This document shows, one piece after another, positions 717-15,888 of a stretch of 16,029 nt of DNA (position 1 is the stretch's first letter; each line of letters starts with the position of its first letter). Source of the DNA: a virus; the UHGV virus genome UHGV-0264118; one strand, written 5' to 3'. A program made the translations under genes and the position numbers. A model generated the notes under the pieces. It made no database searches and was not told where the DNA came from. It worked only from the letters and a program-made list of their open reading frames with translations.

Positions 717-935
717 TCACAATCCCCATTGTTTGTTCTTAAGTTCGATCTCCTCCTGGCAACTTGCACAAGTCCGACAACCCTGAACGGCCAGGCGTCT
801 TCGTTCATCTATGGGATCGCCACACTTACAACAATGAGTGGCAGATATAGCCTGGTGGTTCAGACGACGCATTTTTATTGCTGTATTGCGCTGTAATTCT
901 TCGATTTCTGATGCTGAATCAATGATGTCTGCCAT
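717..935 (-). CDS. TraR/DksA-family C4 zinc-finger protein (lambda orf73-like)
   Basis: 72-aa ORF with paired Cys motifs (CCKCGD ... CRTCASC) in the TraR/DksA arrangement. Sits in the lambda ea/orf region between xis and exo. Confidence 0.65.
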   Translation of the reverse strand: MADIIDSASEIEELQRNTAIKMRRLNHQAISATHCCKCGDPIDERRRLAVQGCRTCASCQEEIELKNKQWGL

Positions 936-1033
936 CTTCCATTAATCCCTGAATTGTTGGTTAATACGCTTGAGGGTGAATGCGAATAATAAAAAAGGAG
1001 CCTGTAGCTCCCTGATGATTTTGCTTTTCATGT

Positions 1034-1249
1034 TCATCGCTCCTTAAAGAAGCCGTTTAACATGCCGATCGCCAGGCTTAAATGAGTCGGTGTGAATCCC
1101 ATCAGCGTTACCGTTTCGCGGTGCTTCTTCAGTACGCTACGGCAAATGTCATCGACGTTTTTATCCGGAAACTGCTGTCTGGCTTTTTTGATTTCAGAAT
1201 TAGCCTGACGGGCAATGCTGCGAAGGGCGTTTTCCTGCTGAGGTGTCAT
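1034..1249 (-). CDS. Small early-left protein, lambda orf61-like
   Basis: Predicted ORF 1034..1315. The ATG at 1249 (MTPQQENALRS...) is the likely true start. The upstream in-frame ATG at 1315 lies only 11 nt after the stop of the preceding gene and has no Shine-Dalgarno. Start is uncertain. Confidence 0.45.
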   Translation of the reverse strand: MTPQQENALRSIARQANSEIKKARQQFPDKNVDDICRSVLKKHRETVTLMGFTPTHLSLAIGMLNGFFKER

Positions 1250-1325
1250 TGAACAAGTCCCATGTCGGCAAGCATAAGCACACAGAATATGAAGCCCGCT
1301 GCCAGAAAAATGCATTCAGTGGTTG

Positions 1326-1517
1326 TCATACCTGGTCTCTCTCATCTGCTTCTGCTTTCGCCACCATCATTTCCAGCTTTTGTGAAAGGGATGCGGCTAA
1401 CGTATGAAATTCTTCGTCTGTTTCTACTGGTATTGGCACAAACCTGACTCCAATTTGAGCGAGGCTATGTGCCATCTCGATACTCGTTCTTAACTCAACG
1501 GGAGATGCTTTATGCAT
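1326..1517 (-). CDS. Small early-left protein, lambda orf63-like
   Basis: 63-aa ORF ([23 protein letters not shown]...), near-identical by recollection to lambda orf63. Overlaps the 3' end of the next ORF as in lambda. Confidence 0.6.
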   Translation of the reverse strand: MHKASPVELRTSIEMAHSLAQIGVRFVPIPVETDEEFHTLAASLSQKLEMMVAKAEADERDQV

Positions 1518-1678
1518 ACAGCCCCCCGTTTATTATTTATCTTCTCAGCCAGCCGCTGTGCTTTCAGTGGATTTCTGATAACAGAAAGGCCGGGAAATAC
1601 CCAGCCTCGCTTTGTAATGGAGTAGACGAAAGTGATCGCGCCTACCCGGATATTATCGTGAGGATGCGTCATCGCCAT
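1490..1678 (-). CDS. Small early-left protein, lambda orf60a-like
   Basis: 62-aa ORF (..[18 protein letters not shown]..) matching recollection of lambda orf60a. Its 5' end overlaps the exo stop by 10 nt. Start may be the ATG at 1672. Confidence 0.6.
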
Positions 1679-2349
1679 TGCTCCCCAAATACAAAACCAA
1701 TTTCAGCCAGTGCCTCGTCCATTTTTTCGATGAACTCCGGCACCATCTCGTCAAAACTCGCTATGTACTTTTCATCCCGCTCAATCACGACATAATGCAG
1801 GCCTTCACGCTTCATGCGCGGGTCATAGTTGGCAAAGTACCAGGCATCTTTTCGCGTCACCCACATGCTGTACTGCACCTGGGCCATGTAAGCCGATTTT
1901 ATTGCCTCAAAACCACCGAGCCGGAATTTCATGAAATCCCGGGAGGTAAACGGGCATTTCAGTTCAAGGCCGTTGCCGTCACTGCATAAACCATCTGGAG
2001 AGCAGGCGGTGCGCATACTTTCGTCGCGATAGATGATCGGGGATTCAGTAACATTCACGCCGGAAGTGAATTCAAACAGGGTTCTGGCGTCGTTCTCGTA
2101 CTGTTTTCCCCAGGCCAGCGCCTTAGCATTAACTTCCGGAGCCACACCGGTGCAAACCTCAGCCAGCAGGGTGTGGAAGTAGGACATTTTCATGTCAGGC
2201 CACTTCTTTCCTGAGCGGGGCTTTGCTATCACGTTGTGAACTTCTGAAGCGGTGATGACGCCGAGCCGTAATTTGTGCCATGCATCATCCCCCTGTTCGA
2301 CAGCTCTCACGTCGATCCCGGTACGCTGCAGGATAATGTCCGGTGTCAT
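1669..2349 (-). CDS. exo: Lambda-type 5'-3' exonuclease (Red-alpha)
   Basis: 226-aa translation ([65 protein letters not shown]...GEQWR) is essentially lambda Exo over its full length. Its start overlaps the bet stop (ATGA). Confidence 0.95.
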
Positions 2350-3131
2350 GCTGCCACCTTCTGCTCAGTGGCTTTCTGTTTCAGGAATCCAAGAGCTTTC
2401 ACTGCTTCGGCCTGTGTCAGTTCTGACGATGCGCGAATGTCGCGGCGAAATATCTGGGAACAGAGCGGCAATAAGTCGTCATCCCATGTTTTATCCAGGG
2501 CGATCAGCAGAGTGTTAATCTCCTGCATGGTTTCATCGTTAACCGGAGTGATGTCGCGTTCCGGCTGACGTTCTGCAGTGTATGCAGTATTTTCGACAAT
2601 GCGCTCGGCTTCATCCTTGTCATAGATACCAGCAAATCCGAAGGCCAGACGGGCACACTGAATCATGGCTTTATGCCGTAACATCCGTTTGGGATGCGAC
2701 TGCCACGGTCCGGTGATTTCTCTGCCTTCGCGGGTTTTGAATGGTTCGCGGCGGCATTCATCCATCCACTCGGTAACGCAGATCGGATGATTACGGTCCT
2801 TGCGGTAAATCCGGCATGTACAGGATTCATTGTCCTGCTCAAAGTCCATGCCATCAAACTGCTGGTTTTCATTGATGATGCGGGACCAGCCATCAACGCC
2901 CACCACCGGAACGATGCCGTTCTGCTTATCAGGGAAGGCGTAAATTTCTTTCGTCCACGGATTAAGGCCGTACTGGTTGGCGACGATCAACAATGCGATG
3001 AACTGCGCATCGCTGGCATCACCTTTAAATGCCGTCTGGCGAAGAGTGGTGATCAGTTCCTGTGGGTCGACAGAATCCATGCCGACACGTTCAGCCAGCT
3101 TCCCTGCCAGCGTTGCGAGTGCTGTACTCAT
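2346..3131 (-). CDS. bet: Red-beta single-strand annealing protein
   Basis: 261-aa translation ([82 protein letters not shown]...) matches lambda Bet. A GAGGT Shine-Dalgarno lies upstream. Confidence 0.95.
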
Positions 3132-3136
3132 CCGTT

Positions 3137-3433
3137 TTATACCTCTGAATCAATATCAACCTGGTGGTGGGCAATAGTTTCAACCATGTACCGGATGTGT
3201 TCTGCCATGCGTTCCTGAAACTCAACATCGTCATCAAACGCACGGGTAATGGCTTTTTTGCTGGCCCCGTGGCGTTGCAAATGATCGATGCATAGCGATT
3301 CAAACAGGTGCTGAGGCAGGCCTTTTTCCATGTCGTCTGCCAGTTCTGCCTCTTTCTCTTCACGGGCGATCTGCTGGTAGTGACGCGCCCAGCTCTGAGC
3401 CTCAAGACGATCCTGAATGTAATAAGCGTTCAT
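3137..3433 (-). CDS. gam: Gam (RecBCD inhibitor), short 98-aa form
   Basis: Translation [60 protein letters not shown]... matches lambda GamS. A good Shine-Dalgarno (CAGGAGTTCAGCCATG) precedes the start. Confidence 0.9.
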
Positions 3434-3508
3434 GGCTGAACTCCTGAAAATGGCTGTGAAAATATCGCCCGCGAAATGCCAGGCTGATTAGGAAAACAGG
3501 AAAGGGGA

Positions 3509-3799
3509 TTAGTGATTCAGGCCGTTACCGCGTCCGTCGAGAAAAACTTCCACGAGCAAATCACGGGTATAAGTGCGCTCGATGCCGCGATGCAGATATA
3601 GCCGTCCGCGTAAATTAGCTGATGCAGTCCAGGTACCATCTTTGTGTTTGACCAGCATTCCTGGCATGACCGCACCTCGATTAACGGTCTGCGTTCCGTA
3701 ATGTTGATGAACCATAAAAACTCCTGCCCGTAAGCTGGGCTGCTGAACATATAGAGACTTCTGCGCGTATTCAGGCGGTGGATGGCCGCCGGTTGTCAT
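3509..3799 (-). CDS. Hypothetical protein in the kil/cIII position
   Basis: Predicted 136-aa ORF (3509..3919) begins at a TTG. The first ATG ([11 protein letters not shown]...) at 3799 gives 96 aa with a weak GAGG upstream. GC-rich, no hydrophobic segment, no cIII-like motif. Family not recognised. Confidence 0.35.
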
Positions 3800-4273
3800 A
3801 ACTAAGCCGCCTCGTTGAAGCGACTGAGGTATGAGGTGTTGAGTTGATTTCAGCTGGTCACACCGACGTTCACACGTCCGTTTCACCCCTCGCACTCCCC
3901 GTAGCCTGCTGAAATTCAAGCTGCAGATCTAAGCGGTCATCGCAACGGTGAAGCGGTAAATCAGAAGATTGCCGCATTCCTGTGCCGTTGTGATGGATTT
4001 ATAATACCTATTGCTATTAATCATATCAATACGTATGGGTATCAATCGATAGCATTTGTTGTTATGCTGTTGATACTGAAAAGAATTTAATGTTGAGGTT
4101 TTTTGTGACATTCGACTCAAAATGGATTTTGCAATTAAATAACCAATTGATAACAATGAAAACATCACGGAGAACTAGATAGGCCAAATTACTTGCCACG
4201 AAGATAGTTGTAAGCGTTGATAACAATGGTATTGAGGAGGGATACCCCCGACAATTGCGTCAGGGGGGAGGGA

Positions 4274-4702: not shown

Positions 4703-5395
4703 TTATCCGTGTTTTCTATATGTCTGCGGCATGCTTCCAATGACTTTACCGAAGATGAACACCCGGTTCATCTCGTCTTTCTCGATCGGGTCCCACGGTG
4801 AGTAGCTCTTGTTATCAGAGATAACCAGCAGCTTATCCTTCATCATTTGCAGGCGCTTTACATGGGCTGTGTCGTCGTACAGAAACGCATAGATACCATC
4901 ACCGTCGAAAGATTTAACAGTGATATCAACGAACAAAAGATCACCTGGTTCGATCGTTCCTGACATGCTGTCACCGCGTACGTTAATGATGCGGATATTT
5001 TCTGCCTTCCTGCCATCGAACATGTGACGAGCATCGTCAAACGAGTACTCAACCGAGCGTAGAACTTCTACAAACTCACGATTGATGACACCCGGCCCGG
5101 CACTGACTTCTATATCAAGAACGTCAATCTTGAAGTATTTGGAATGGCTGACAGCAGGCTTCCCTGATTGTTGACCGTCATTTCTCATCGGGCCTATGCC
5201 TGATGAGAGCCACTCTGTTCGAACACCCAATGCATTAGCTATTTCAACAATTTTTGTTGAGCCGCGCGCGTTGCCGCTTGTCAGTCTCCAGATTGTGGGT
5301 TGAGCTACGCCAGACGCCTTTGCAAGAGCGCCTTGAGACATTCCAGATTGTTCCATCGCTAGGTTTAAGCGATCAGCAAGAGTTTCTTTTTTCAT
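4703..5395 (-). CDS. cI: CI-type prophage repressor (XRE-family HTH plus S24 LexA-like autopeptidase domain)
   Basis: HTH segment MSQGALAKASGVAQPTIWRLTSG. Ala-Gly cleavage site (EVSAGPG). S24 catalytic motifs GDSM and VKRL. The ATG at 5395 (MKKETLADRL) has no Shine-Dalgarno, consistent with a leaderless PRM-type transcript. The predicted TTG start at 5431 is less likely. Confidence 0.85.
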   Translation of the reverse strand: MKKETLADRLNLAMEQSGMSQGALAKASGVAQPTIWRLTSGNARGSTKIVEIANALGVRTEWLSSGIGPMRNDGQQSGKPAVSHSKYFKIDVLDIEVSAGPGVINREFVEVLRSVEYSFDDARHMFDGRKAENIRIINVRGDSMSGTIEPGDLLFVDITVKSFDGDGIYAFLYDDTAHVKRLQMMKDKLLVISDNKSYSPWDPIEKDEMNRVFIFGKVIGSMPQTYRKHG

Positions 5396-5505
5396 AAGTT
5401 TTAATTTATACGCTTGCGTATTGATGGTCAAAACACGTTTTGCTATTGATTGGGTTAATACGCATTGCTATTATCTATTCATTGCAATACCAATAGGAAT
5501 TGATA
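5396..5505. promoter_or_regulatory. Divergent repressor/cro promoter-operator region (PRM/PR-like)
   Basis: Intergenic region between divergent cI and cro. Near-palindrome ATACGC-TT-GCGTAT at 5408-5421 and related ATACGCATTGCTAT at 5457-5470. Candidate PR: TTGATT (5446-5451), 17-nt spacer, TATTAT (5469-5474). Candidate PRM on the minus strand: TTGACC then about 16 nt then ATAAAT, ending just upstream of the leaderless ATG. Confidence 0.5.
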
Positions 5506-5733
5506 ATGACAAATCAAACCATTCAACTCGCAATCAGTATTACAGGTAGTCAAAAACGACTGGCAGATCTCTGCGGTGTAGCCCAACCCACGGTTTGGCG
5601 TTGGCTACACGGTGGCGGAATTGATGCCCGCTATGTAATGAAAATTGTCTCAGCCACTGGTGGAAAGATTAAACCAGCAGATATTCGTCCCGACCTCGCA
5701 CCATTGTTTAACGTGAGTAATTCTTCCGCCTAA
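5506..5733 (+). CDS. Cro/YdaS-like small HTH regulator
   Basis: 75-aa ORF from the ATG at 5506 (predicted TTG at 5500). AGGA Shine-Dalgarno 7 nt upstream. HTH segment SQKRLADLCGVAQPTVWRW. Divergent from the repressor. Confidence 0.7.
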   Translation: MTNQTIQLAISITGSQKRLADLCGVAQPTVWRWLHGGGIDARYVMKIVSATGGKIKPADIRPDLAPLFNVSNSSA

Positions 5734-5763
5734 TCTGCGGAGTTAACTGATAAGGCAATTACT

Positions 5764-6303
5764 ATGCAACCAATTACATACCAACAGACTAGCGGATTTA
5801 CCCCGGCTGCGGTGATAAATCGTTCTCAAACAAAACAGGCGCCAGGCCACGAAAAAATCCGTGATGCCGTTCGCGCCTGGTCGGCTGCAGATAATCAGGA
5901 TGTTGTTGCCGCACTCATTGTGAATGAGTATCGGGAGCAGGGCGGCGGCACCATCGATTTCCCTGATGATGTCAGCCGTGCACGCCAGAAGCTGTTCCGC
6001 TTCCTCGATAACAAATTCGATTCTGAAAAATACCGAAATAACGTGCGTGAACTGACCCCGGCAATTCTGGCGGTACTACCGCTGGAATATCGCGGTTACC
6101 TGGTTGAGCAGGATAGCTTCATGGCCAGGTTGGCTGAAATGGAAAAGGAACTCAGTGAGGCAAAACAGGCTGTCATTCTCAACGCACCACGCCACCAGAA
6201 ACTGAAGGAAATTGGTGAAGGTATTGTATCGATGTTTCGTGTGGACCCAGATCTGGCTGGTCCATTGATGGCGATGGTTACTACCATGCTGGGGGCGATA
6301 TGA
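5764..6303 (+). CDS. YdaT-like or CII-like regulatory protein (family assignment tentative)
   Basis: 179-aa ORF directly downstream of the cro-like gene, in the position of cII/ydaT. Motifs EYREQGGG and LTPAILAVLP recall YdaT-family proteins, from recollection only. Confidence 0.5.
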   Translation: MQPITYQQTSGFTPAAVINRSQTKQAPGHEKIRDAVRAWSAADNQDVVAALIVNEYREQGGGTIDFPDDVSRARQKLFRFLDNKFDSEKYRNNVRELTPAILAVLPLEYRGYLVEQDSFMARLAEMEKELSEAKQAVILNAPRHQKLKEIGEGIVSMFRVDPDLAGPLMAMVTTMLGAI

Positions 6304-6389
6304 CAGGTTCAGAAATGGCGAAAGCCGGTCTGCTGGAACAGAACCGACTTTCAGGTGCAAATCGTAACACACTCATTGCGGGAGGAATT

Positions 6390-7319
6390 ATGGCAAACAC
6401 TGCTGAGATATTCAATTTTCCAGTGCCGGATGCGGCACAAAAGGAGCCGCGCGTGGCAGATCTCGATGATGGTTATACGCGCATTGCAAATGAGTTGCTG
6501 GAAGCTGTGATGCTGGCCGGATTAACACAGCACCAGCTTCTGGTCTTCCTGGCTGTCATGCGCAAAACATATGGCTTTAATAAAAAACTGGATTGGGTGA
6601 GCAACGAGCAACTGTCCGGATTGACCGGGATATTACCGCACAAGTGTTCTGCTGCAAAAAGTGTTCTGGTAAAGCGTGGGATTTTGATTCAGAGCGGGCG
6701 GAATATCGGTATTAATAATGTGGTCAGTGAATGGTCAACATTACCCGAATCAGGTAAGAAAAATAAAGTTTACCTGAAAGAGGTAAATTTACCTGAATCA
6801 GGTAAGAAAAGTTTACCCAAATCAGGTAAAGGCGTTTACCCGAATCAGGTAAACACAAAAGACAAACTAACAAAAGACAATATAAAACCTTTTTCGTCCG
6901 AGAATTCTGGCGAATCCTCTGACCAACCAGAAAACGATCTTCCTGTGGTGAAACCAGATGCTGCAATTCAGAGCGGCAGCAAGTGGGGGACAGCAGAAGA
7001 CCTGACCGCCGCAGAGTGGATGTTTGACATGGTGAAGACCATCGCACCATCAGCCAGAAAACCGAATTTTGCAGGGTGGGCTAACGATATCCGCCTGATG
7101 CGTGAACGTGACGGACGTAACCACCGCGACATGTGCGTGCTTTTCCGCTGGGCATGCCAGGACAACTTCTGGTCCGGTAACGTGCTAAGTCCGGCCAAAC
7201 TCCGCGACAAGTGGACCCAACTCGAAATCAACCGTAACAAGCAACAGGCAGGCATGATAGCCAGCAAACCAAAACTCGACCTGACAAACACTGACTGGAT
7301 TTACGGGGTGGATTTATGA
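6390..7319 (+). CDS. O: Replication initiator O (lambda O-like)
   Basis: From the ATG at 6390 (MANTAEIFNFPVP..., GGAGG Shine-Dalgarno 4 nt upstream). The C-terminal ~150 aa (..YSSENSGESSDQPENDLPVVKPDAAIQSGSKWGTAEDLTAAEWMFDMVKTIAPSARKPNFAGWANDIRLMRERDGRNHRDMCVLFRWACQDNFWSGNV..) is essentially lambda O. The N-terminal iteron-binding domain is related but divergent. Confidence 0.9.
   Translation: MANTAEIFNFPVPDAAQKEPRVADLDDGYTRIANELLEAVMLAGLTQHQLLVFLAVMRKTYGFNKKLDWVSNEQLSGLTGILPHKCSAAKSVLVKRGILIQSGRNIGINNVVSEWSTLPESGKKNKVYLKEVNLPESGKKSLPKSGKGVYPNQVNTKDKLTKDNIKPFSSENSGESSDQPENDLPVVKPDAAIQSGSKWGTAEDLTAAEWMFDMVKTIAPSARKPNFAGWANDIRLMRERDGRNHRDMCVLFRWACQDNFWSGNVLSPAKLRDKWTQLEINRNKQQAGMIASKPKLDLTNTDWIYGVDL
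6741..6853. repeat. Replication origin iterons inside the O gene
   Basis: Five copies of about 17 bp with consensus TACC(C/T)GAATCAGGTAA(G/A) at approximately 6742, 6771 (degenerate), 6790, 6814 and 6837. Followed by an A-rich tract at 6854-6890, as in ori-lambda. Confidence 0.75.
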
Positions 7320-8017
7320 AAAACATCGCCGCACAGATGGTTAACTTTGACCGTGAGCAGATGCGTCGGATCGCCAACAACATGCCGGAACAGTACGACG
7401 AAAAGCCGCAGGTACAGCAGGTAGCGCAGATCATCAACGGTGTGTTCAGCCAGTTACTGGCAACTTTCCCGGCGAGCCTGGCTAACCGTGACCAGAATGA
7501 ACTGAACGAAATCCGCCGCCAGTGGGTGCTGGCTTTTCGGGAAAACGGGATCACCACAATGGAACAGGTTAACGCTGGAATGCGCGTAGCCCGTCGGCAG
7601 AATCGACCATTCCTGCCATCACCCGGGCAGTTTGTCGCCTGGTGCCGGGAAGAAGCATCCGTTACCGCCGGGCTGCCAAACGCCAGCGAGCTGGTTGATA
7701 TGGTTTACGAGTATTGCCGGAAGCGCGGGCTGTATCCGGATGCAGAGTCTTATCCGTGGAAATCAAACGCGCACTACTGGCTGGTTACCAACCTGTATCA
7801 GAACATGCGGGCCAATGCGTTGACTGACGCGGAATTACGGCGCAAGGCTGCCGATGAACTGTCCTGTATGACCGCACGAATTAACCGTGGTGAGGCTATA
7901 CCTGAACCAGTAAAACAACTTCCTGTCATGGGCGGTAGACCTCTAAATCGTGCACAGGCTCTGGCGAAGATCGCAGAAATCAAAGCTAAGTTTGGGCTGA
8001 AAGGAGCAAGGGTATGA
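7316..8017 (+). CDS. P: Replication protein P (DnaB helicase loader)
   Basis: 233-aa translation MKNIAAQMVNFDREQMRRIANNMPEQYDEKPQVQQVAQIINGVFSQLLATFPASLANRDQNEL... is near-identical to lambda P. Start overlaps the O stop (ATGA). Confidence 0.95.
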   Translation: MKNIAAQMVNFDREQMRRIANNMPEQYDEKPQVQQVAQIINGVFSQLLATFPASLANRDQNELNEIRRQWVLAFRENGITTMEQVNAGMRVARRQNRPFLPSPGQFVAWCREEASVTAGLPNASELVDMVYEYCRKRGLYPDAESYPWKSNAHYWLVTNLYQNMRANALTDAELRRKAADELSCMTARINRGEAIPEPVKQLPVMGGRPLNRAQALAKIAEIKAKFGLKGARV

Positions 8018-8316
8018 CGGGCAAAGAGGCAATTATTCATTACCTGGGGACTCATAAGAAATTCTGTGCGCAGGACGTTGCCGCGGTAACAGGCGCAACG
8101 GTAACCAGCATAAATCAGGCTGCGGCTAAAATGGCACGGGCAGGTCTTCTGGCTATCGAAGGTAAGGTCTGGCGAACGGTGTATTACCGGTTTGCTACCA
8201 GAGAAGAACGGGAAGGAAAGGTGAGCACGAATCTGATTTTTAAGGAGTGTCGCCAGAGTGCCGCGATGAAACGGGTATTGAGGGTATATAAAAGAACATC
8301 AATGGGTACACAATGA
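8014..8316 (+). CDS. ren: Ren protein
   Basis: 100-aa translation MTGKEAIIHYLGTHKKFCAQDVAAVTGATVTSINQAAAKMARAGLLAIEGKVWRTVYYRFATREEREGK... matches lambda Ren. Start overlaps the P stop. Confidence 0.85.
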   Translation: MTGKEAIIHYLGTHKKFCAQDVAAVTGATVTSINQAAAKMARAGLLAIEGKVWRTVYYRFATREEREGKVSTNLIFKECRQSAAMKRVLRVYKRTSMGTQ

Positions 8317-8383
8317 TGAAACAGGTGAGTTGAGTTCAAACTGTAGTACAATTCTCTCCAGTTTGAACAGGAAAGAATATTCT

Positions 8384-8716
8384 ATGAACCCTTATATTTA
8401 TCTTGGTGGTGCAATACTTGCAGAGGTCATTGGTACAACCTTAATGAAGTTTTCAGAAGGTTTTACACGGTTATGGCCATCTGTTGGTACAATTATTTGT
8501 TATTGTGCATCATTCTGGTTATTAGCTCAGACGCTGGCTTATATTCCTACAGGGATTGCTTATGCTATCTGGTCAGGAGTCGGTATTGTCCTGATTAGCT
8601 TACTGTCATGGGGACTTTTCGGCCAACGGCTGGACCTGCCAGCCATTATAGGCATGATGTTGATTTGTGCCGGTGTGTTGGTTATTAATTTATTGTCACG
8701 AAGCACACCACATTAA
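8384..8716 (+). CDS. emrE: SMR-family multidrug efflux transporter EmrE
   Basis: 110-aa translation from the ATG at 8384 (MNPYIYLGGAILAEVIGTTLMKFSEGFTRLWPSVGTIICYCASFWLLAQTLAYIPTGIAYAIWSGVGIVLISLLSWG...) matches E. coli EmrE with its four transmembrane helices. The predicted ORF starts earlier at 8330. Confidence 0.95.
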   Translation: MNPYIYLGGAILAEVIGTTLMKFSEGFTRLWPSVGTIICYCASFWLLAQTLAYIPTGIAYAIWSGVGIVLISLLSWGLFGQRLDLPAIIGMMLICAGVLVINLLSRSTPH

Positions 8717-8972: not shown

Positions 8973-10499
8973 ATGAAAAAAGCCATAGCATATATGCGAT
9001 TTTCATCACCAGGTCAGATGTCTGGCGACTCATTAAACCGACAGAGAAGACTTATTGCTGAATGGTTAAAGGTAAATAGTGATTATTATCTTGATACCAT
9101 AACATATGAAGATTTAGGATTAAGTGCATTCAAAGGAAAGCATGCACAATCAGGAGCTTTTTCGGAATTTTTAGATGCTATAGAGCATGGTTATATATTG
9201 CCAGGAACTACATTGTTAGTTGAAAGTCTGGACAGACTTTCAAGAGAAAAAGTCGGTGAAGCGATTGAACGTCTGAAATTGATTTTGAATCACGGTATTG
9301 ATGTTATAACTCTTTGCGACAATACAGTCTATAATATTGACTCTTTGAATGAGCCATATTCATTAATAAAAGCCATACTTATAGCACAAAGGGCAAATGA
9401 AGAAAGCGAGATAAAGTCAAGTCGGGTTAAATTATCATGGAAGAAAAAACGGCAGGATGCACTGGAATCAGGTACGATTATGACGGCGTCTTGTCCGAGA
9501 TGGCTCTCCTTAGATGACAAAAGAACGGCTTTTGTTCCAGACCCCGACAGGGTGAAAACTATTGAGCTAATTTTTAAACTCAGGATGGAAAGGCGCTCAT
9601 TGAATGCAATAGCCAAGTATTTAAATGATCATGCTGTAAAGAATTTCTCAGGAAAAGAAAGTGCATGGGGACCTTCTGTAATTGAAAAATTATTAGCGAA
9701 TAAAGCTCTGATAGGTATATGCGTACCTTCATATCGTGCAAGAGGTAAAGGAATAAGTGAAATCGCTGGCTATTATCCCAGAGTCATATCAGATGATTTG
9801 TTTTACGCTGTACAGGAAATTCGGTTGGCACCTTTTGGTATTAGCAATAGTAGCAAAAATCCTATGTTGATAAATCTACTTCGAACAGTTATGAAGTGCG
9901 AGGCTTGTGGTAATACCATGATTGTTCATGCGGTATCTGGAAGTTTGCATGGCTATTATGTTTGTCCGATGAGAAGACTGCATCGATGTGACAGGCCATC
10001 AATAAAGAGAGATTTGGTTGATTATAATATCATTAATGAGTTGCTTTTTAATTGTAGTAAAATCCAACCAGTTGAAAACAAGAAAGATGCTAATGAAACT
10101 TTAGAGTTGAAAATTATTGAGCTCCAGATGAAAATTAATAATTTAATTGCTGCATTATCTGTTGCGCCTGAAGTTACCGCTATAGCAGAAAAAATCAGAG
10201 TATTAGATAAGGAATTACGAAGGGCTTCTGTATCATTAAAAACTTTGAAGAGTAAAGCGGTGAGTTCACTTGGTGATTTTCATGCTATTGACTTAACCAG
10301 TAAAAATGGGCGAGAGCTATGTCGTACACTTGCCTATAAAACATTCGAAAAAATCATAATCAATACAGATAATAAAACCTGTGATATCTATTTTATGAAT
10401 GGCATTGTTTTTAAACACTATCCTTTAATGAAAACAATATCCGCCCAGCAGGCGATAAGTACTCTCAAATATATGGTTGATGGTGAGGTTTATTTTTGA
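8973..10499 (+). CDS. ybcK: Large serine recombinase (YbcK-like)
   Basis: 508 aa. N-terminal resolvase-type catalytic motif AIAYMRFSSPGQ (Y-x-R-x-S nucleophile). C-terminal Cys cluster (CEACGN...CPMRRLHRCD) and a coiled-coil segment typical of large serine recombinases. AGGTG Shine-Dalgarno upstream. Markedly AT-rich gene. Confidence 0.85.
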   Translation: MKKAIAYMRFSSPGQMSGDSLNRQRRLIAEWLKVNSDYYLDTITYEDLGLSAFKGKHAQSGAFSEFLDAIEHGYILPGTTLLVESLDRLSREKVGEAIERLKLILNHGIDVITLCDNTVYNIDSLNEPYSLIKAILIAQRANEESEIKSSRVKLSWKKKRQDALESGTIMTASCPRWLSLDDKRTAFVPDPDRVKTIELIFKLRMERRSLNAIAKYLNDHAVKNFSGKESAWGPSVIEKLLANKALIGICVPSYRARGKGISEIAGYYPRVISDDLFYAVQEIRLAPFGISNSSKNPMLINLLRTVMKCEACGNTMIVHAVSGSLHGYYVCPMRRLHRCDRPSIKRDLVDYNIINELLFNCSKIQPVENKKDANETLELKIIELQMKINNLIAALSVAPEVTAIAEKIRVLDKELRRASVSLKTLKSKAVSSLGDFHAIDLTSKNGRELCRTLAYKTFEKIIINTDNKTCDIYFMNGIVFKHYPLMKTISAQQAISTLKYMVDGEVYF

Positions 10500-12565: not shown

Positions 12566-12848
12566 TTTGAGAAAAGCAGCGCGTAGTCGGGAATGCCAGG
12601 TAAGAATCCCTGGCGTATGTAATGGCAACCCTGAAACGTCTGTACTGGCACATATCCGGCTGACTGGATTGTGCGGCACCGGTACCAAACCGCCAGACCT
12701 GATTGCCACCATTGCATGTTCTGCCTGCCACGACGAAATCGACCGCCGCACACATTTTGTCGATGCTGCATATGCAAAAGAATGCGCGCTGGAAGGTATG
12801 GCGAGAACACAGGTTATCTGGCTGAAAGAGGGGGTTATTAAGGCGTGA
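12558..12848 (+). CDS. ybcO: YbcO-like Cys-rich putative nuclease (96 aa)
   Basis: From the ATG at 12558 ([64 protein letters not shown]...). The predicted ORF starts upstream at 12519 inside ninE. Confidence 0.8.
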
Positions 12849-13207
12849 ATACCTACAGCATCACATTACCCTGGCCTCCGAGCAATAATCGCTATTACCG
12901 CCATAATCGCGGGCGCACGCACGTCAGCGCAGAGGGGCAGGCATACCGCGATAACGTCGCCCGAATCATTAAAAACGCAATGCTGGATATCGGCCTGGCT
13001 ATGCCTGTGAAAATCCGCATTGAGTGCCACATGCCGGATCGCCGTCGCCGTGACCTGGATAATCTGCAAAAAGCCGCTTTTGACGCACTCACTAAAGCAG
13101 GTTTCTGGCTGGATGATGCTCAGGTCGTTGATTACCGCGTTGTGAAGATGCCTGTTACCAAAGGTGGGAGGCTGGAACTGACCATCACCGAAATGGGGAA
13201 TGAATGA
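12845..13207 (+). CDS. rusA: Holliday-junction resolvase RusA
   Basis: 120-aa translation [104 protein letters not shown]... matches E. coli RusA. Confidence 0.95.
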
Positions 13208-13344
13208 TGTTTGAGTTTTATATGGCAGAACGTCTTCGCCACCGCTGGGGGCGTCTGCGCTTATATCGTTTCCCCGGTTCTGTTTTGACCGATTACCGAA
13301 TACTGAAGAATTACGCCAAAACCCTGACAGGAGCAGGAGTATGA
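13204..13344 (+). CDS. ylcG: YlcG-like small protein (46 aa)
   Basis: Manual translation [46 protein letters not shown]. Start overlaps the rusA stop (ATGA). Confidence 0.55.
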
Positions 13345-13429
13345 AGTCAGAGATAACAATCAACTAATACTGTTTCGTTGATTTTTGCTTGTAATTGGCG
13401 TTCTGGTCTGATTTTTGTGGAGTAAGTTG

Positions 13430-13813
13430 ATGCGTGATATTCAGATGGTTCTTGAGCGTTGGGGAGCGTGGGCGGCTAATAATCATGAAGATGTGACCTG
13501 GTCGTCCATTGCCGCCGGTTTTAAGGGATTAATTACTTCAAAAGTAAAATCTCGCCCGCAATGTTGTGACGATGACGCGATGATCATTTGCGGGTGCATG
13601 GCCCGTCTGAAAAAGAACAACAGCGATTTGCACGATTTATTAGTAGATTATTATGTAGTCGGTATGACATTCATGTCACTGGCAGGTAAGCATTGCTGCT
13701 CTGATGGTTATATCGGGAAAAGGTTACAGAAGGCTGAGGGCATAATTGAAGGGGTGTTAATGGCATTAGATATCCGGTTAGAGATGGATATCGTTGTTAA
13801 TAACTCTAATTAA
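13430..13813 (+). CDS. quuD: Late-gene antiterminator Q, phage 82 type (QuuD-like)
   Basis: 127 aa from the ATG at 13430 ([34 protein letters not shown]...[16 protein letters not shown]...). GGAGTAAG Shine-Dalgarno upstream. The predicted TTG start at 13415 is less likely. Confidence 0.85.
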
Positions 13814-14001: not shown

Positions 14002-15084
14002 TTAGAACTGGTAAACCATACCTACAGCAACGATATCATCGGTAGCAACGCCAGATGCTTTCGTGAAATCGCTCTTATCAATCAGGTTGATTTTGTAGTC
14101 AACAAAAGTGGACATATTTTTGTTGAAGTAATAGGTTGCACCTACATCAACATATTCAACCAGGTCCTGATCACCCCAAACACCCAAGTCTTTTCCTTTA
14201 GAATGCAGGTAAGCAACGGATGGACGCAGGCCGAAGTCGAACTGATATTGTGCAACAGCTTCGAAGTTTTGTGCTTTGTTGGCAATATGGTTATTACCAA
14301 AAACAGTCATGTTCTGGGTTTCAGAATAGGTGGTGGCCAGATAGATGTTGTTCGCATCATATTTCAGACCAGCTGCCCATACTTCAGCATTTTGACCAGA
14401 AGCATTCAGACCGTTGTTACCGTAGATAACCTGATTATTAGTGCGATCAGATTTAGCATAGGTTGCACCCACGCCGAATCCTTCATACTCATAAGTAGTT
14501 GAGAAACCGAAACCATCGCCATTAGCTTCAGTTACTTCATTTCGGTCATTTTTGCCCTGATACTGAGCTGCAAAGTTCAGGCCATCAACCAGACCAAAGA
14601 AGTCGTTGTTACGATAAGTTGCAACACCTGTGGTGCGACCAGTCATGAATACATCTGTTTGGGTCCAGGTATCGCCACCGAATTCTGGCAGAACGTCAGT
14701 CCACGCACCGATGTCGTATGCTACACCGTAGTTACGGCCGTAATCGATTGAGCCGTAGTCACCGAATTTCAGGCCTGCAAATGCAAGACGGGTTTTGTCT
14801 TTGGAGGAACCTTGAGATTCAGCGCGGTTGCCTTTGAATTCATATTCCCACTGACCGAAACCAGTCAGTTGATCGTTGATTTGGGTTTCACCTTTGAAGC
14901 CAAGACGGGCATAAGTAGTATCACCATCATCTGCATCATTAGAGGAGAAGTAGTGCTTAGCATTAACTTTCCCGTACAGATCCAGCTTGTTACTGTCTTT
15001 ATTATAAATTTCAGCTGCCTGAGCAGACATCGCCATCAGTACTGATGCAGCTACAGCAGAAATTGCCACTGTTAATTTTTTCAT
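14002..15084 (-). CDS. nmpC: Outer-membrane general porin (OmpC/OmpF family), NmpC-like
   Basis: 360 aa. Signal peptide [23 protein letters not shown]|AEIYNKD. Beta-barrel porin hallmarks and C-terminal ...VAVGMVYQF. Convergent with Q, between Q and the lysis genes. Confidence 0.9.
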
Positions 15085-15672
15085 CGTGAGCCCTTTTTTT
15101 TGAACTATTATTAAAAAATGATGTCACTGCGCGATAAATATTCATCTAATCAATGTGATTATTTCAAGATGTAAGTTTTAGTTTCTCATTTAATTTGTGA
15201 AGTAGATCTCTATTTTTATCTGAACTTTTTCTATCGAAACCTATTTATGGCTCTTATTTGAACAAAAATAAACCTATTAGCTAATTTATATTAATGGCTG
15301 TTATTTATGGGGGTTCTATAATTCGGCAGTTTAATTTAAATCAACTAAAAATAACGTCTGAAATTATTTATTGGTTATTTGTTGAGGTTTTCTTATGTAT
15401 TTGTGGTGGAGTTTTGAACACTCGGTAGCATTCTCATAAATATCATTCAGTGGTTTACGTACGTAAAAAATTGGTTATGCTGTTAAGAGTGGTTACTTCG
15501 TCACACAGCTTAAACCCGCCGTCGAGCTGGTTTTTCCATTTTTTGAGTCTCGATATTAGCTGATAACTCAATACCTGAGTTATTCACTGACTCCGAGTCT
15601 GTTACGTTTCTGCTTTTTTGCGATACGTTGTATTCCCTCAATTTACACCCGCTTTGTCTGCGAGGTGGGGTT

Positions 15673-15888
15673 ATGAAATCCATGGATAAGTTAACAACGG
15701 GTATCGCCTATGGCACCTCAGCAGGTAGTGCCGGTTACTGGTTTTTACAGCTGCTCGATAAAGTCACGCCCTCACAGTGGGCAGCAATAGGTGTGCTGGG
15801 TAGCCTGGTATTTGGCCTGCTGACGTACCTGACAAACCTTTATTTCAAGATTAAAGAAGATAAGCGCAAGGCTGCGAGAGGTGAATAA
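15673..15888 (+). CDS. essD: Class II holin, phage 21 S-type (EssD-like), dual-start
   Basis: 71 aa from the ATG at 15673 ([71 protein letters not shown]). MKSM dual-start motif. GAGGTGGGG Shine-Dalgarno upstream. Confidence 0.9.

Follow-up and report, generated by a model that had tools for sequence, protein, structure and literature searches.

We analyzed a 16,029-nucleotide stretch of viral DNA (UHGV virus genome UHGV-0264118; hereafter, the window), which gene order and Pfam support identified as the early part of a temperate, lambda-like coliphage or prophage genome. The minus strand carries exo (1669-2349), bet (2346-3131), gam (3137-3433), and a gene for a CI-type repressor of the S24/HTH kind (4703-5431); next to these are a gene for a YdaS-type Cro-like protein (5500-5733), placed like the others by Pfam-supported gene order, and, in the cII position, one for a YdaT-type protein that is 66% identical to phi80 CII (5764-6303). 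The order that follows is O (6390-7319), P (7316-8017, plus strand), and ren (8014-8316, plus strand), and then a nin region resembling those of DLP12 and phage 82. P encodes a lambda-type helicase loader (Pfam Phage_lambda_P, E = 8e-62). By BLAST, resemblance to lambda was limited to two blocks. One covers window positions 740 to 3515 (lambda 30418-33193, 97.3% nucleotide identity), and the other covers 6853 to 8289 (lambda 39119-40555, 94.9%), with its right end inside ren. From 3516 to about 6890 runs a single unbroken non-lambda substitution comprising the immunity region together with the first half of O and its origin repeats (iterons). Farther right, positions 12800 to 13334 match the rus region of phage 82 (X92588) at 95.9%. 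Pfam matches and annotations placed genes for an EmrE-like SMR transporter and a YbcK-like large serine recombinase, as well as rusA and Q, downstream of ren, and a porin gene lies on the opposite strand directly ahead of the holin gene. The order of this post-ren set presumably mirrors that of the DLP12 cryptic prophage of E. coli K-12.

Gene O, recognized by Pfam and by alignment with its homologues, encodes a replication initiator of 309 amino acids when read from the ATG at 6390 (6390-7319, plus strand). Its N-terminal region belongs to Pfam Phage_rep_O (PF04492; E = 2.1e-33; score, 115.2 bits; cutoff, 28.7), with residues 21 to 115 spanning profile positions 1 to 95 of 95. The reading frame is open from an upstream ATG at 6300. 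However, the methionine encoded at 6390 lines up with Met1 of O in each of lambda, phi80, GZ7, and SEN34, a Shine-Dalgarno-like GGGAGGA lies immediately 5' of 6390, and the counterpart of the upstream interval in phi80 is an 86-bp intergenic stretch encoding an oop homologue. We therefore dropped ATG 6300, and the comparison makes 6390 very probably the translation start. The GenBank record of Escherichia phage Turner annotates O from the position equivalent to ATG 6300, a start that is probably 90 nucleotides too far upstream; the extra stretch overlaps the region that holds the oop antisense RNA in lambda and phi80. In the window, the corresponding 86-bp interval (6304-6389) is accompanied by a promoter-like site on the minus strand (6415-6387), and the minus-strand reading of 6296-6382 forms a stable hairpin (-25.5 kcal/mol, z = -2.45) at the position of the oop/M3 antisense RNA of lambda and phi80 (PMC6022878). 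No Rfam family, oop-like or other, matched at the gathering threshold anywhere in the window. Sequence and profile searches of the PDB with O and with an alignment of six phage N-domains found no significant relative (best E value, 0.09, for an unrelated protein), and an AlphaFold2 model of residues 1 to 167, made from the single sequence without an alignment, had a mean pLDDT of 39, too low for a winged-helix or HTH fold of the N-domain to be read from it.

Next, we looked into how the parts of O compare with those of other phages. The N-terminal origin-binding domain (residues 1 to 117; 6390-6740, plus strand) is of a non-lambda type: it shares 53% of its nucleotides with lambda and 55 of 115 residues (48%) with lambda O. 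Over the same 115 residues, identity was 39% to phi80 gp15, 59% to P22 gp18, 61% to the SEN34 protein, and 83% to that of Klebsiella phage GZ7. The linker, encoded by the iteron and A+T-rich segments, is 30% identical to that of lambda O. The C-terminal domain (6895-7319, plus strand), presumed to bind P, is of the lambda type, with 95% nucleotide identity; from the residues SSENSG to the end, it matches lambda and 21 at 138 of 141 positions and 434 at 137. A preliminary description of this DNA had called the C terminus of O lambda identical, and its lambda type was borne out, although strict identity was not (about 98% of amino acids and 95% of nucleotides). The same description had read P and ren as lambda-like, which agrees with matches of 228/233 residues (98%) for P and 84/92 (91%, over the aligned stretch) for Ren. 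The lambda-type C-domain adjoins P, which overlaps the end of O, so that a lambda-type O-P module is present in sequence. Alignment of O with its lambda, phi80, and 21 counterparts, together with comparison of the iterons, upheld the further claim that the N-terminal part and the iterons are unlike those of lambda: the N-domain is not lambda identical, and it comes with a repeat of its own (TTACCYGAATCAGGTAA, versus TCCCTCAAAACGAGGGA in lambda).

This repeat, a 17-nucleotide core, occurs five times between 6741 and 6852 with zero to two mismatches per copy; dinucleotide-preserving shuffles of the window contained a mean of 0.04 and a maximum of 1 match. About five iterons had been described at 6742-6853, a count that stands with the coordinates corrected to those of the core. 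Every copy is dyad symmetric, with 6 to 8 of the 8 arm positions complementary. Iteron 1 (TTACCCGAATCAGGTAA, 6741-6757) has 7 complementary positions and is read in frame 0; iteron 2 (TTACCTGAAAGAGGTAA, 6770-6786), the most degenerate copy, has 6 and is read in frame 2; iteron 3 (TTACCTGAATCAGGTAA, 6789-6805, frame 0) is a perfect palindrome of 8+1+8 with all 8; iteron 4 (TTACCCAAATCAGGTAA, 6813-6829, frame 0) has 6; and iteron 5 (6836-6852, frame 2), which repeats the sequence of iteron 1, has 7 and aligns with lambda iteron 4. Start-to-start spacings are 29, 19, 24, and 23 nucleotides. The center of iteron 2 departs from the consensus (GAAAGAG versus GAATCAG); in Stx phages, the iterons within one array are unequally bound (PMC7466680). 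Because the copies are read in two frames (0, 2, 0, 0, and 2), the iterons are conserved as DNA and not as peptide. With five dyad-symmetric repeats inside the O coding sequence, the locus has the array of at least four that characterizes the architecture of a lambda-type origin. The locus falls outside the ori-specificity group of lambda, 434, and 21 in three respects, namely, its different iteron, the 52% nucleotide identity over the iteron region, and its divergent N-domain. The iteron string had no match in a full-text search of open-access papers, and iteron annotation for this type of O was absent from the records inspected.

Directly to the right of the iterons lies an A+T-rich region of 42 nucleotides (6853-6894; 76% A+T versus 55% for the whole window), which aligns with the A+T-rich region of about 40 bp of lambda-type origins and is presumed to be the DNA-unwinding element. 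In a multiphage alignment, the motif ACACAAAAGACA...ACAAAAGA within it was common to the window, lambda, 434, P22, SEN34, and GZ7. At the variable positions, the window followed GZ7, SEN34, and P22 (...GACAAACTAACAAAAGACAATAT...) and not lambda, and its likeness to lambda began at TCGTCCGAGAATTC (6894). Nucleotide identity to lambda was 53% over 6390-6740, 52% over 6741-6852, 76% over 6853-6894, and 95% over 6895-7000. The multiphage alignment and this step in identity delimit a mosaic junction zone at 6881-6894, of GZ7/SEN34 type on its left and lambda type on its right. The sequences thus place the probable junction where the A+T-rich region ends on its right, which in the protein is the boundary of the linker and the C-domain. 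We refined the junction from the one suggested by BLAST at 6853, right after the last iteron, since the GZ7/SEN34 type persists over the first ~35 nucleotides of the A+T-rich region; the match to lambda extends to 6853 because the A+T-rich element is conserved among the origins compared. In lambda coordinates, the junction zone is 39147-39160. Two misc_recomb features, without an explanatory note, stand in the lambda GenBank records at 39157^39158 and 39165^39166; they map to window positions 6891/2 and 6899/6900, where the natural junction also lies. These marks are probably the crossovers of laboratory hybrid phages.

We then compared repeat types with N-domain types and found that each N-domain type compared had its own repeat. 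Lambda, 434, and 21 share one repeat, that given above for lambda; SEN34 has TTAGCGGAAGTTGCTAA; phi80 has a repeat resembling TTCCCGAAAACGG; and P22 gene 18 has repeats with the arms TTACC..GGTAA that total only 15 to 16 nucleotides. GZ7, the nearest in its N-domain, carries the 17-mer of the window at the same gene positions (381, 400, 424, and 447). Searching the viral contigs of IMG/VR for exact matches to the 17-mer gave at least 120 loci; among those listed, two or more exact copies were present in 105. In 103 of the 103 such loci that could be evaluated, that is, those with upstream DNA present, the iterons lay inside an O reading frame with this type of N-domain, 69 to 100% identical to that of the window. 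IMG/VR loci with a single match and without an O gene look like chance matches. The N-domain and its iterons are thus inherited together. The C-terminal modules, in contrast, are interchangeable, with C-domain and next gene varying in step: among the IMG/VR loci listed, the C-domain was of the lambda type with lambda P next to it in 62, of the GZ7 type with a DnaC-like loader next in 25 and with a distant P-like gene next in 3, and P22-like with a gp12-like helicase next in 2. Every lambda-type C-domain with a classified downstream gene among these loci (62/62) adjoined lambda P. Moreover, lambda-type iterons precede the lambda-type C-domain and P in lambda, 434, 21, and Stx phages, and a 79% identical version of the pair stands behind SEN34-type iterons. 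Variation of the O and gp18 proteins with origin specificity has been described (PMC8022706).

The hybrid O is widespread. At a threshold of at least 80% coverage, with identities mostly of 95 to 99%, its full length was found in 2,368 of 5,426 complete E. coli genomes (~44%), and the half comprising the N-domain and iterons, searched alone, was found in 2,270 to 2,424 of them. As these counts are nearly equal, the N-module in E. coli is almost always joined to the lambda-type C-module. The full hybrid was also present in 15 sequenced coliphages: O of the window shows 100% identity to its counterpart in Escherichia phage Turner (PP925837) and 97 to 98% identity to those of 14 others, including 4A7, Lambda_4C10, 1W, 3W, Perceval, and several PhiR isolates. 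Throughout, it goes under the annotation of replication protein (O). The O of the window is among the commonest O alleles known, and given how many E. coli genomes carry the same hybrid allele, the recombination event is not peculiar to the window.

Several known systems resemble the locus in part. As in lambda, the linker-coding part of the initiator gene houses the origin, which has dyad repeats of about 17 to 19 bp with an A+T-rich region of about 40 bp on the right (PMC5043065). The spacings of the last four iterons (19, 24, and 23) are close to those of lambda (20, 24, and 23), copies 2 to 5 align with lambda column for column, and both O proteins fall in Pfam Phage_rep_O. In contrast to lambda, which has four iterons, the window has a fifth one 29 bp upstream, and the central part of its A+T-rich region is nearer the GZ7/SEN34/P22 version. 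GZ7-type O (OP114732) and its relatives share not only the N-domain and the 17-mer but also five copies with identical spacing (29, 19, 24, and 23) and the first ~35 nucleotides of the A+T-rich region, whereas their C-domain is unrelated (23% identity) and the next gene encodes a DnaC/DnaI-type helicase loader in place of lambda P. Among the classical phages compared, P22 gene 18 has the closest N-domain, the same outer arms at the same gene position, and the A+T-rich motif ACAAAAGACAATA. It differs in having four repeats of 15 to 16 nucleotides, with arms 1 to 2 bp closer, and in its unrelated C-domain, which works with the DnaB-type helicase gp12 and not with P (PMC8022706). Laboratory hybrid O proteins likewise have a crossover inside O, with origin specificity in the N-terminal part and P specificity in the C-terminal part; they are products of laboratory selection, whereas the allele of the window is natural and very widespread. 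In ES18 and epsilon34, the N-terminal region of O is 94% identical to lambda gpO and is joined to a different C-terminal part and a putative helicase (Villafane et al. 2008, PMC2629481). These are natural mosaics at the same gene with one lambda-type half, in which the arrangement of the halves is reciprocal to that of the window. The Stx phages 933W and P27 also have the lambda-type C-half and P (933W is 95.3% identical in nucleotides to window 6853-7319), and iteron number varies within the family (PMC7466680), but their six iterons are of the lambda type, and their N-domains are ~41% identical to that of the window.

We consider it very likely that O and its origin consist of two modules with separate histories, a non-lambda N-domain with its iterons and a lambda-type C-domain with P, that operate by a lambda-like mechanism. 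The left module (~6390-6890) would comprise the N-domain and, in the linker-coding part, its cognate cis-acting origin of five iterons and the A+T-rich element; the right module (~6895-8289) would be of the lambda type throughout and comprise the O C-domain, P, and ren. Lambda O has an N-terminal DNA-binding domain, a C-terminal P-binding domain, and a flexible linker (PMC6022878). Dimers of it bind the iterons through the N-domain, the resulting array distorts the DNA, and the 40-bp A+T-rich region opens, while the C-terminal domain brings in P-DnaB (PMC5043065, PMC6022878). Since the origin of the window has the same anatomy, the lambda mechanism best explains how it would function. By this analogy, O dimers would occupy each iteron through the N-domain and build an O-some; the O-some would distort the DNA, so that the adjacent A+T-rich region opens; and the O C-domain would recruit the P-DnaB complex. 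The preliminary description had suggested that origin specificity was swapped while the interaction with lambda P was kept. We infer the same from the division of labor within lambda O, as presented in PMC6022878 with citation of Furth and Yates (1978) and Wickner and Zahn (1986), and from the co-occurrence of repeat and N-domain in all of the evaluable IMG/VR loci listed. Because its iterons and N-domain differ from those of lambda, the replicon of the window would be blind to lambda O, and the lambda origin would be blind to the O of the window; the replicon would still reach host DnaB through the lambda-type P route. The partly conserved A+T-rich region may serve as a patch of homology exactly at the protein-domain boundary, where recombination would yield functional chimeras.

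Two readings would dispense with one or the other part of this account. The repeats could be merely coding repeats of a linker peptide (LPESGKK-like), without any function as DNA and with the origin elsewhere. Three copies in the same frame do encode LPESGK, LPESGK, and LPKSGK, and the O linker is flexible and tolerant of change, with in-frame deletions of the lambda ori still able to complement (PMC6022878). However, the two copies in the other frame encode YLKEVN and YPNQVN from the same nucleotide sequence, and all copies are inverted repeats, for which a peptide repeat has no need. Furthermore, their position and spacing match those of the proven O-binding sites of lambda, the A+T-rich stretch follows them, and the exact 17-mer is kept in O genes whose N-domains are just 69 to 71% identical. 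On account of the two reading frames and the palindromic copies, we rejected a role in coding for peptide only, a reading that we regard as extremely improbable. Alternatively, there may have been no recombination, and the N-half may have diverged faster than the C-half from a lambda-like ancestor while coevolving with its iterons. Origin-binding domains and their sites do coevolve, and the N-domain is still homologous to that of lambda, with the motifs VADLDDGY and RKTYGxNK kept. Nevertheless, identity rises from ~52% to 95% within ~40 nucleotides, the 95% block covers synonymous sites and continues through P and ren, and on the other side, the non-lambda block reaches left across the entire immunity region to 3516. 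Moreover, the same module of N-domain and iterons is found on unrelated C-domains (23 to 25% identity) next to different helicase-recruitment genes. This reassortment of N- and C-modules is what recombination would produce, and it excludes simple differential divergence; together with the sharp step in identity, it led us to reject gradual divergence, which is very improbable. The recombination junction inside O that the preliminary description had proposed is thus corroborated by the step across the 42-nucleotide A+T-rich region and by the reassortment of modules.

The locus may be the classical O/ori type of phage 82, sequenced and dissected in about 1978 to 1981, in which case even the iteron would already have been described. 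Phage 82 O is type specific, the sequence to the right of its iterons and its P function are lambda compatible, and this architecture is that of the window. Given the 95.9% identity between the nin region of the window and the rus region of phage 82, the type in the window may well be ori82. Hybrid O proteins of lambda and 82 are credited to Furth and Yates (1978) where that work is cited in PMC6022878 and PMC4488673; literature searches on the phage 82 origin led only to citations of that study. On the other side, the iteron block was found, in the phage collection searched, in the records of only 15 E. coli and 6 Klebsiella phages, with no phage 82 ori or O among the matches, and the full-text search recovered the iteron string from no open-access paper. 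We hold identity with the phage 82 type to be a real possibility, although somewhat less than an even one. Nearly even, in our estimate, is the prospect that the cassette of TTACCYGAATCAGGTAA and its N-domain constitutes an experimentally uncharacterized specificity group distinct from those of lambda, phi80, P22, and phage 82. Such a group would be the commonest O/ori type in E. coli prophages, naturally joined to at least three helicase-recruitment modules (lambda P, a DnaC-like loader, and a gp12-like helicase), and exchange would always fall at the right edge of the A+T-rich element, making this element both the site of unwinding and a recombination linker. The linker role is suggested by the positions of the junctions, and the A+T-rich patch may be kept purely for unwinding.

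A modular O, with origin specificity in its N-terminal half and P specificity in its C-terminal half, has been a paradigm of lambdoid mosaicism since 1978. The feature described here is a phage mosaic of a known, textbook kind, and the allele has already been deposited in phage and E. coli genomes. Annotation pipelines could treat this type of O as a replicon-specificity group in its own right. Cross-activation and initiator titration among coresident lambdoid prophages, including Stx prophages with lambda-type iterons, depend on replicon specificity. For studies of how prophages interact, it is thus useful to know that a non-lambda origin would be combined with the lambda-type P route in about 44% of complete E. 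coli genomes.

The open reading frame of the replication initiator gene O begins with an ATG at position 6300, which overlaps the stop codon of the upstream gene (window 6300-6389), and the GenBank annotation of the identical O of Escherichia phage Turner (PP925837) places the start at the position of this ATG. All O homologues start at the position equivalent to 6390. A GGGAGGA sequence stands just before 6390, and translation of O probably does not include the 30 codons that begin at 6300. Overlapping the start of O on the minus strand, we found a predicted sigma-70-like promoter (6415-6387, TTGAAT-17-CATAAT with an upstream TG), and downstream of it, on the same strand, a stable hairpin (6296-6382, −25.5 kcal/mol, z = −2.45). 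The equivalent position is occupied in lambda by pO and the oop antisense RNA and in phi80 by the M3 RNA. The region (6296-6415) had no match in Rfam and no clear T-run terminator.

We compared the N-terminal domain of O and its iterons with those of phage P22, whose N-terminal domain is 59% identical. The P22 gene 18 origin repeats (1802-1880 of the P22 locus, L003) have the outer arms TTACC..GGTAA in common with the window's repeats (6741-6852) but are 15 to 16 nt rather than 17 nt long. Because the arms are common and the repeat lengths are different, the two N-terminal domains, as judged from sequence, may differ mainly in half-site spacing. Within an N-terminal region that is otherwise 53% identical to lambda, a 23-nt run (6453-6475, GTGGCAGATCTCGATGATGGTTA), coding for VADLDDGY, is identical to lambda. 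The corresponding runs of P22, GZ7 (a Klebsiella phage), SEN34, and phi80 carry synonymous changes, so that conservation of a peptide motif is most likely all that the run reflects.

For lambda, both GenBank and RefSeq list two misc_recomb features without notes, at 39157^39158 and 39165^39166 (4158-4167 of the lambda locus, L001). These map to window positions 6891/2 and 6899/6900, exactly where the natural mosaic junction of the window falls, and probably represent crossovers of laboratory hybrid phages.

The immunity region (5500-6303) is of the phi80/Rac type and not of the lambda type, since a YdaS-family protein (77 aa) fills the cro position and a YdaT-family protein (179 aa), 66% identical to phi80 CII (180 aa), fills the cII position. 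Directly after ren lies an EmrE/QacE-like small multidrug resistance transporter gene (8330-8716, PF00893), apparently a moron within the nin region; emrE of the K-12 prophage DLP12 occupies the same place. The nin region also contains a YbcK-like large serine recombinase (8973-10499, 508 aa), and the stretch from Q (13415-13813) to the holin (15628-15888) holds an OmpC/NmpC-like porin gene on the opposite, minus strand (14002-15084). The organization is DLP12-like. Phage 82 (X92588) matches the rusA region (12800-13334) at 95.9% identity.

Finally, three IMG/VR viral contigs (L060, L087, and L101) combine the window's iteron and N-domain type with a GZ7-type C-terminal domain (88 to 95% identical over 88 aa), followed by a gene that is only 34 to 38% identical to lambda P and is not a DnaC-like loader. 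This arrangement is a fourth module combination.
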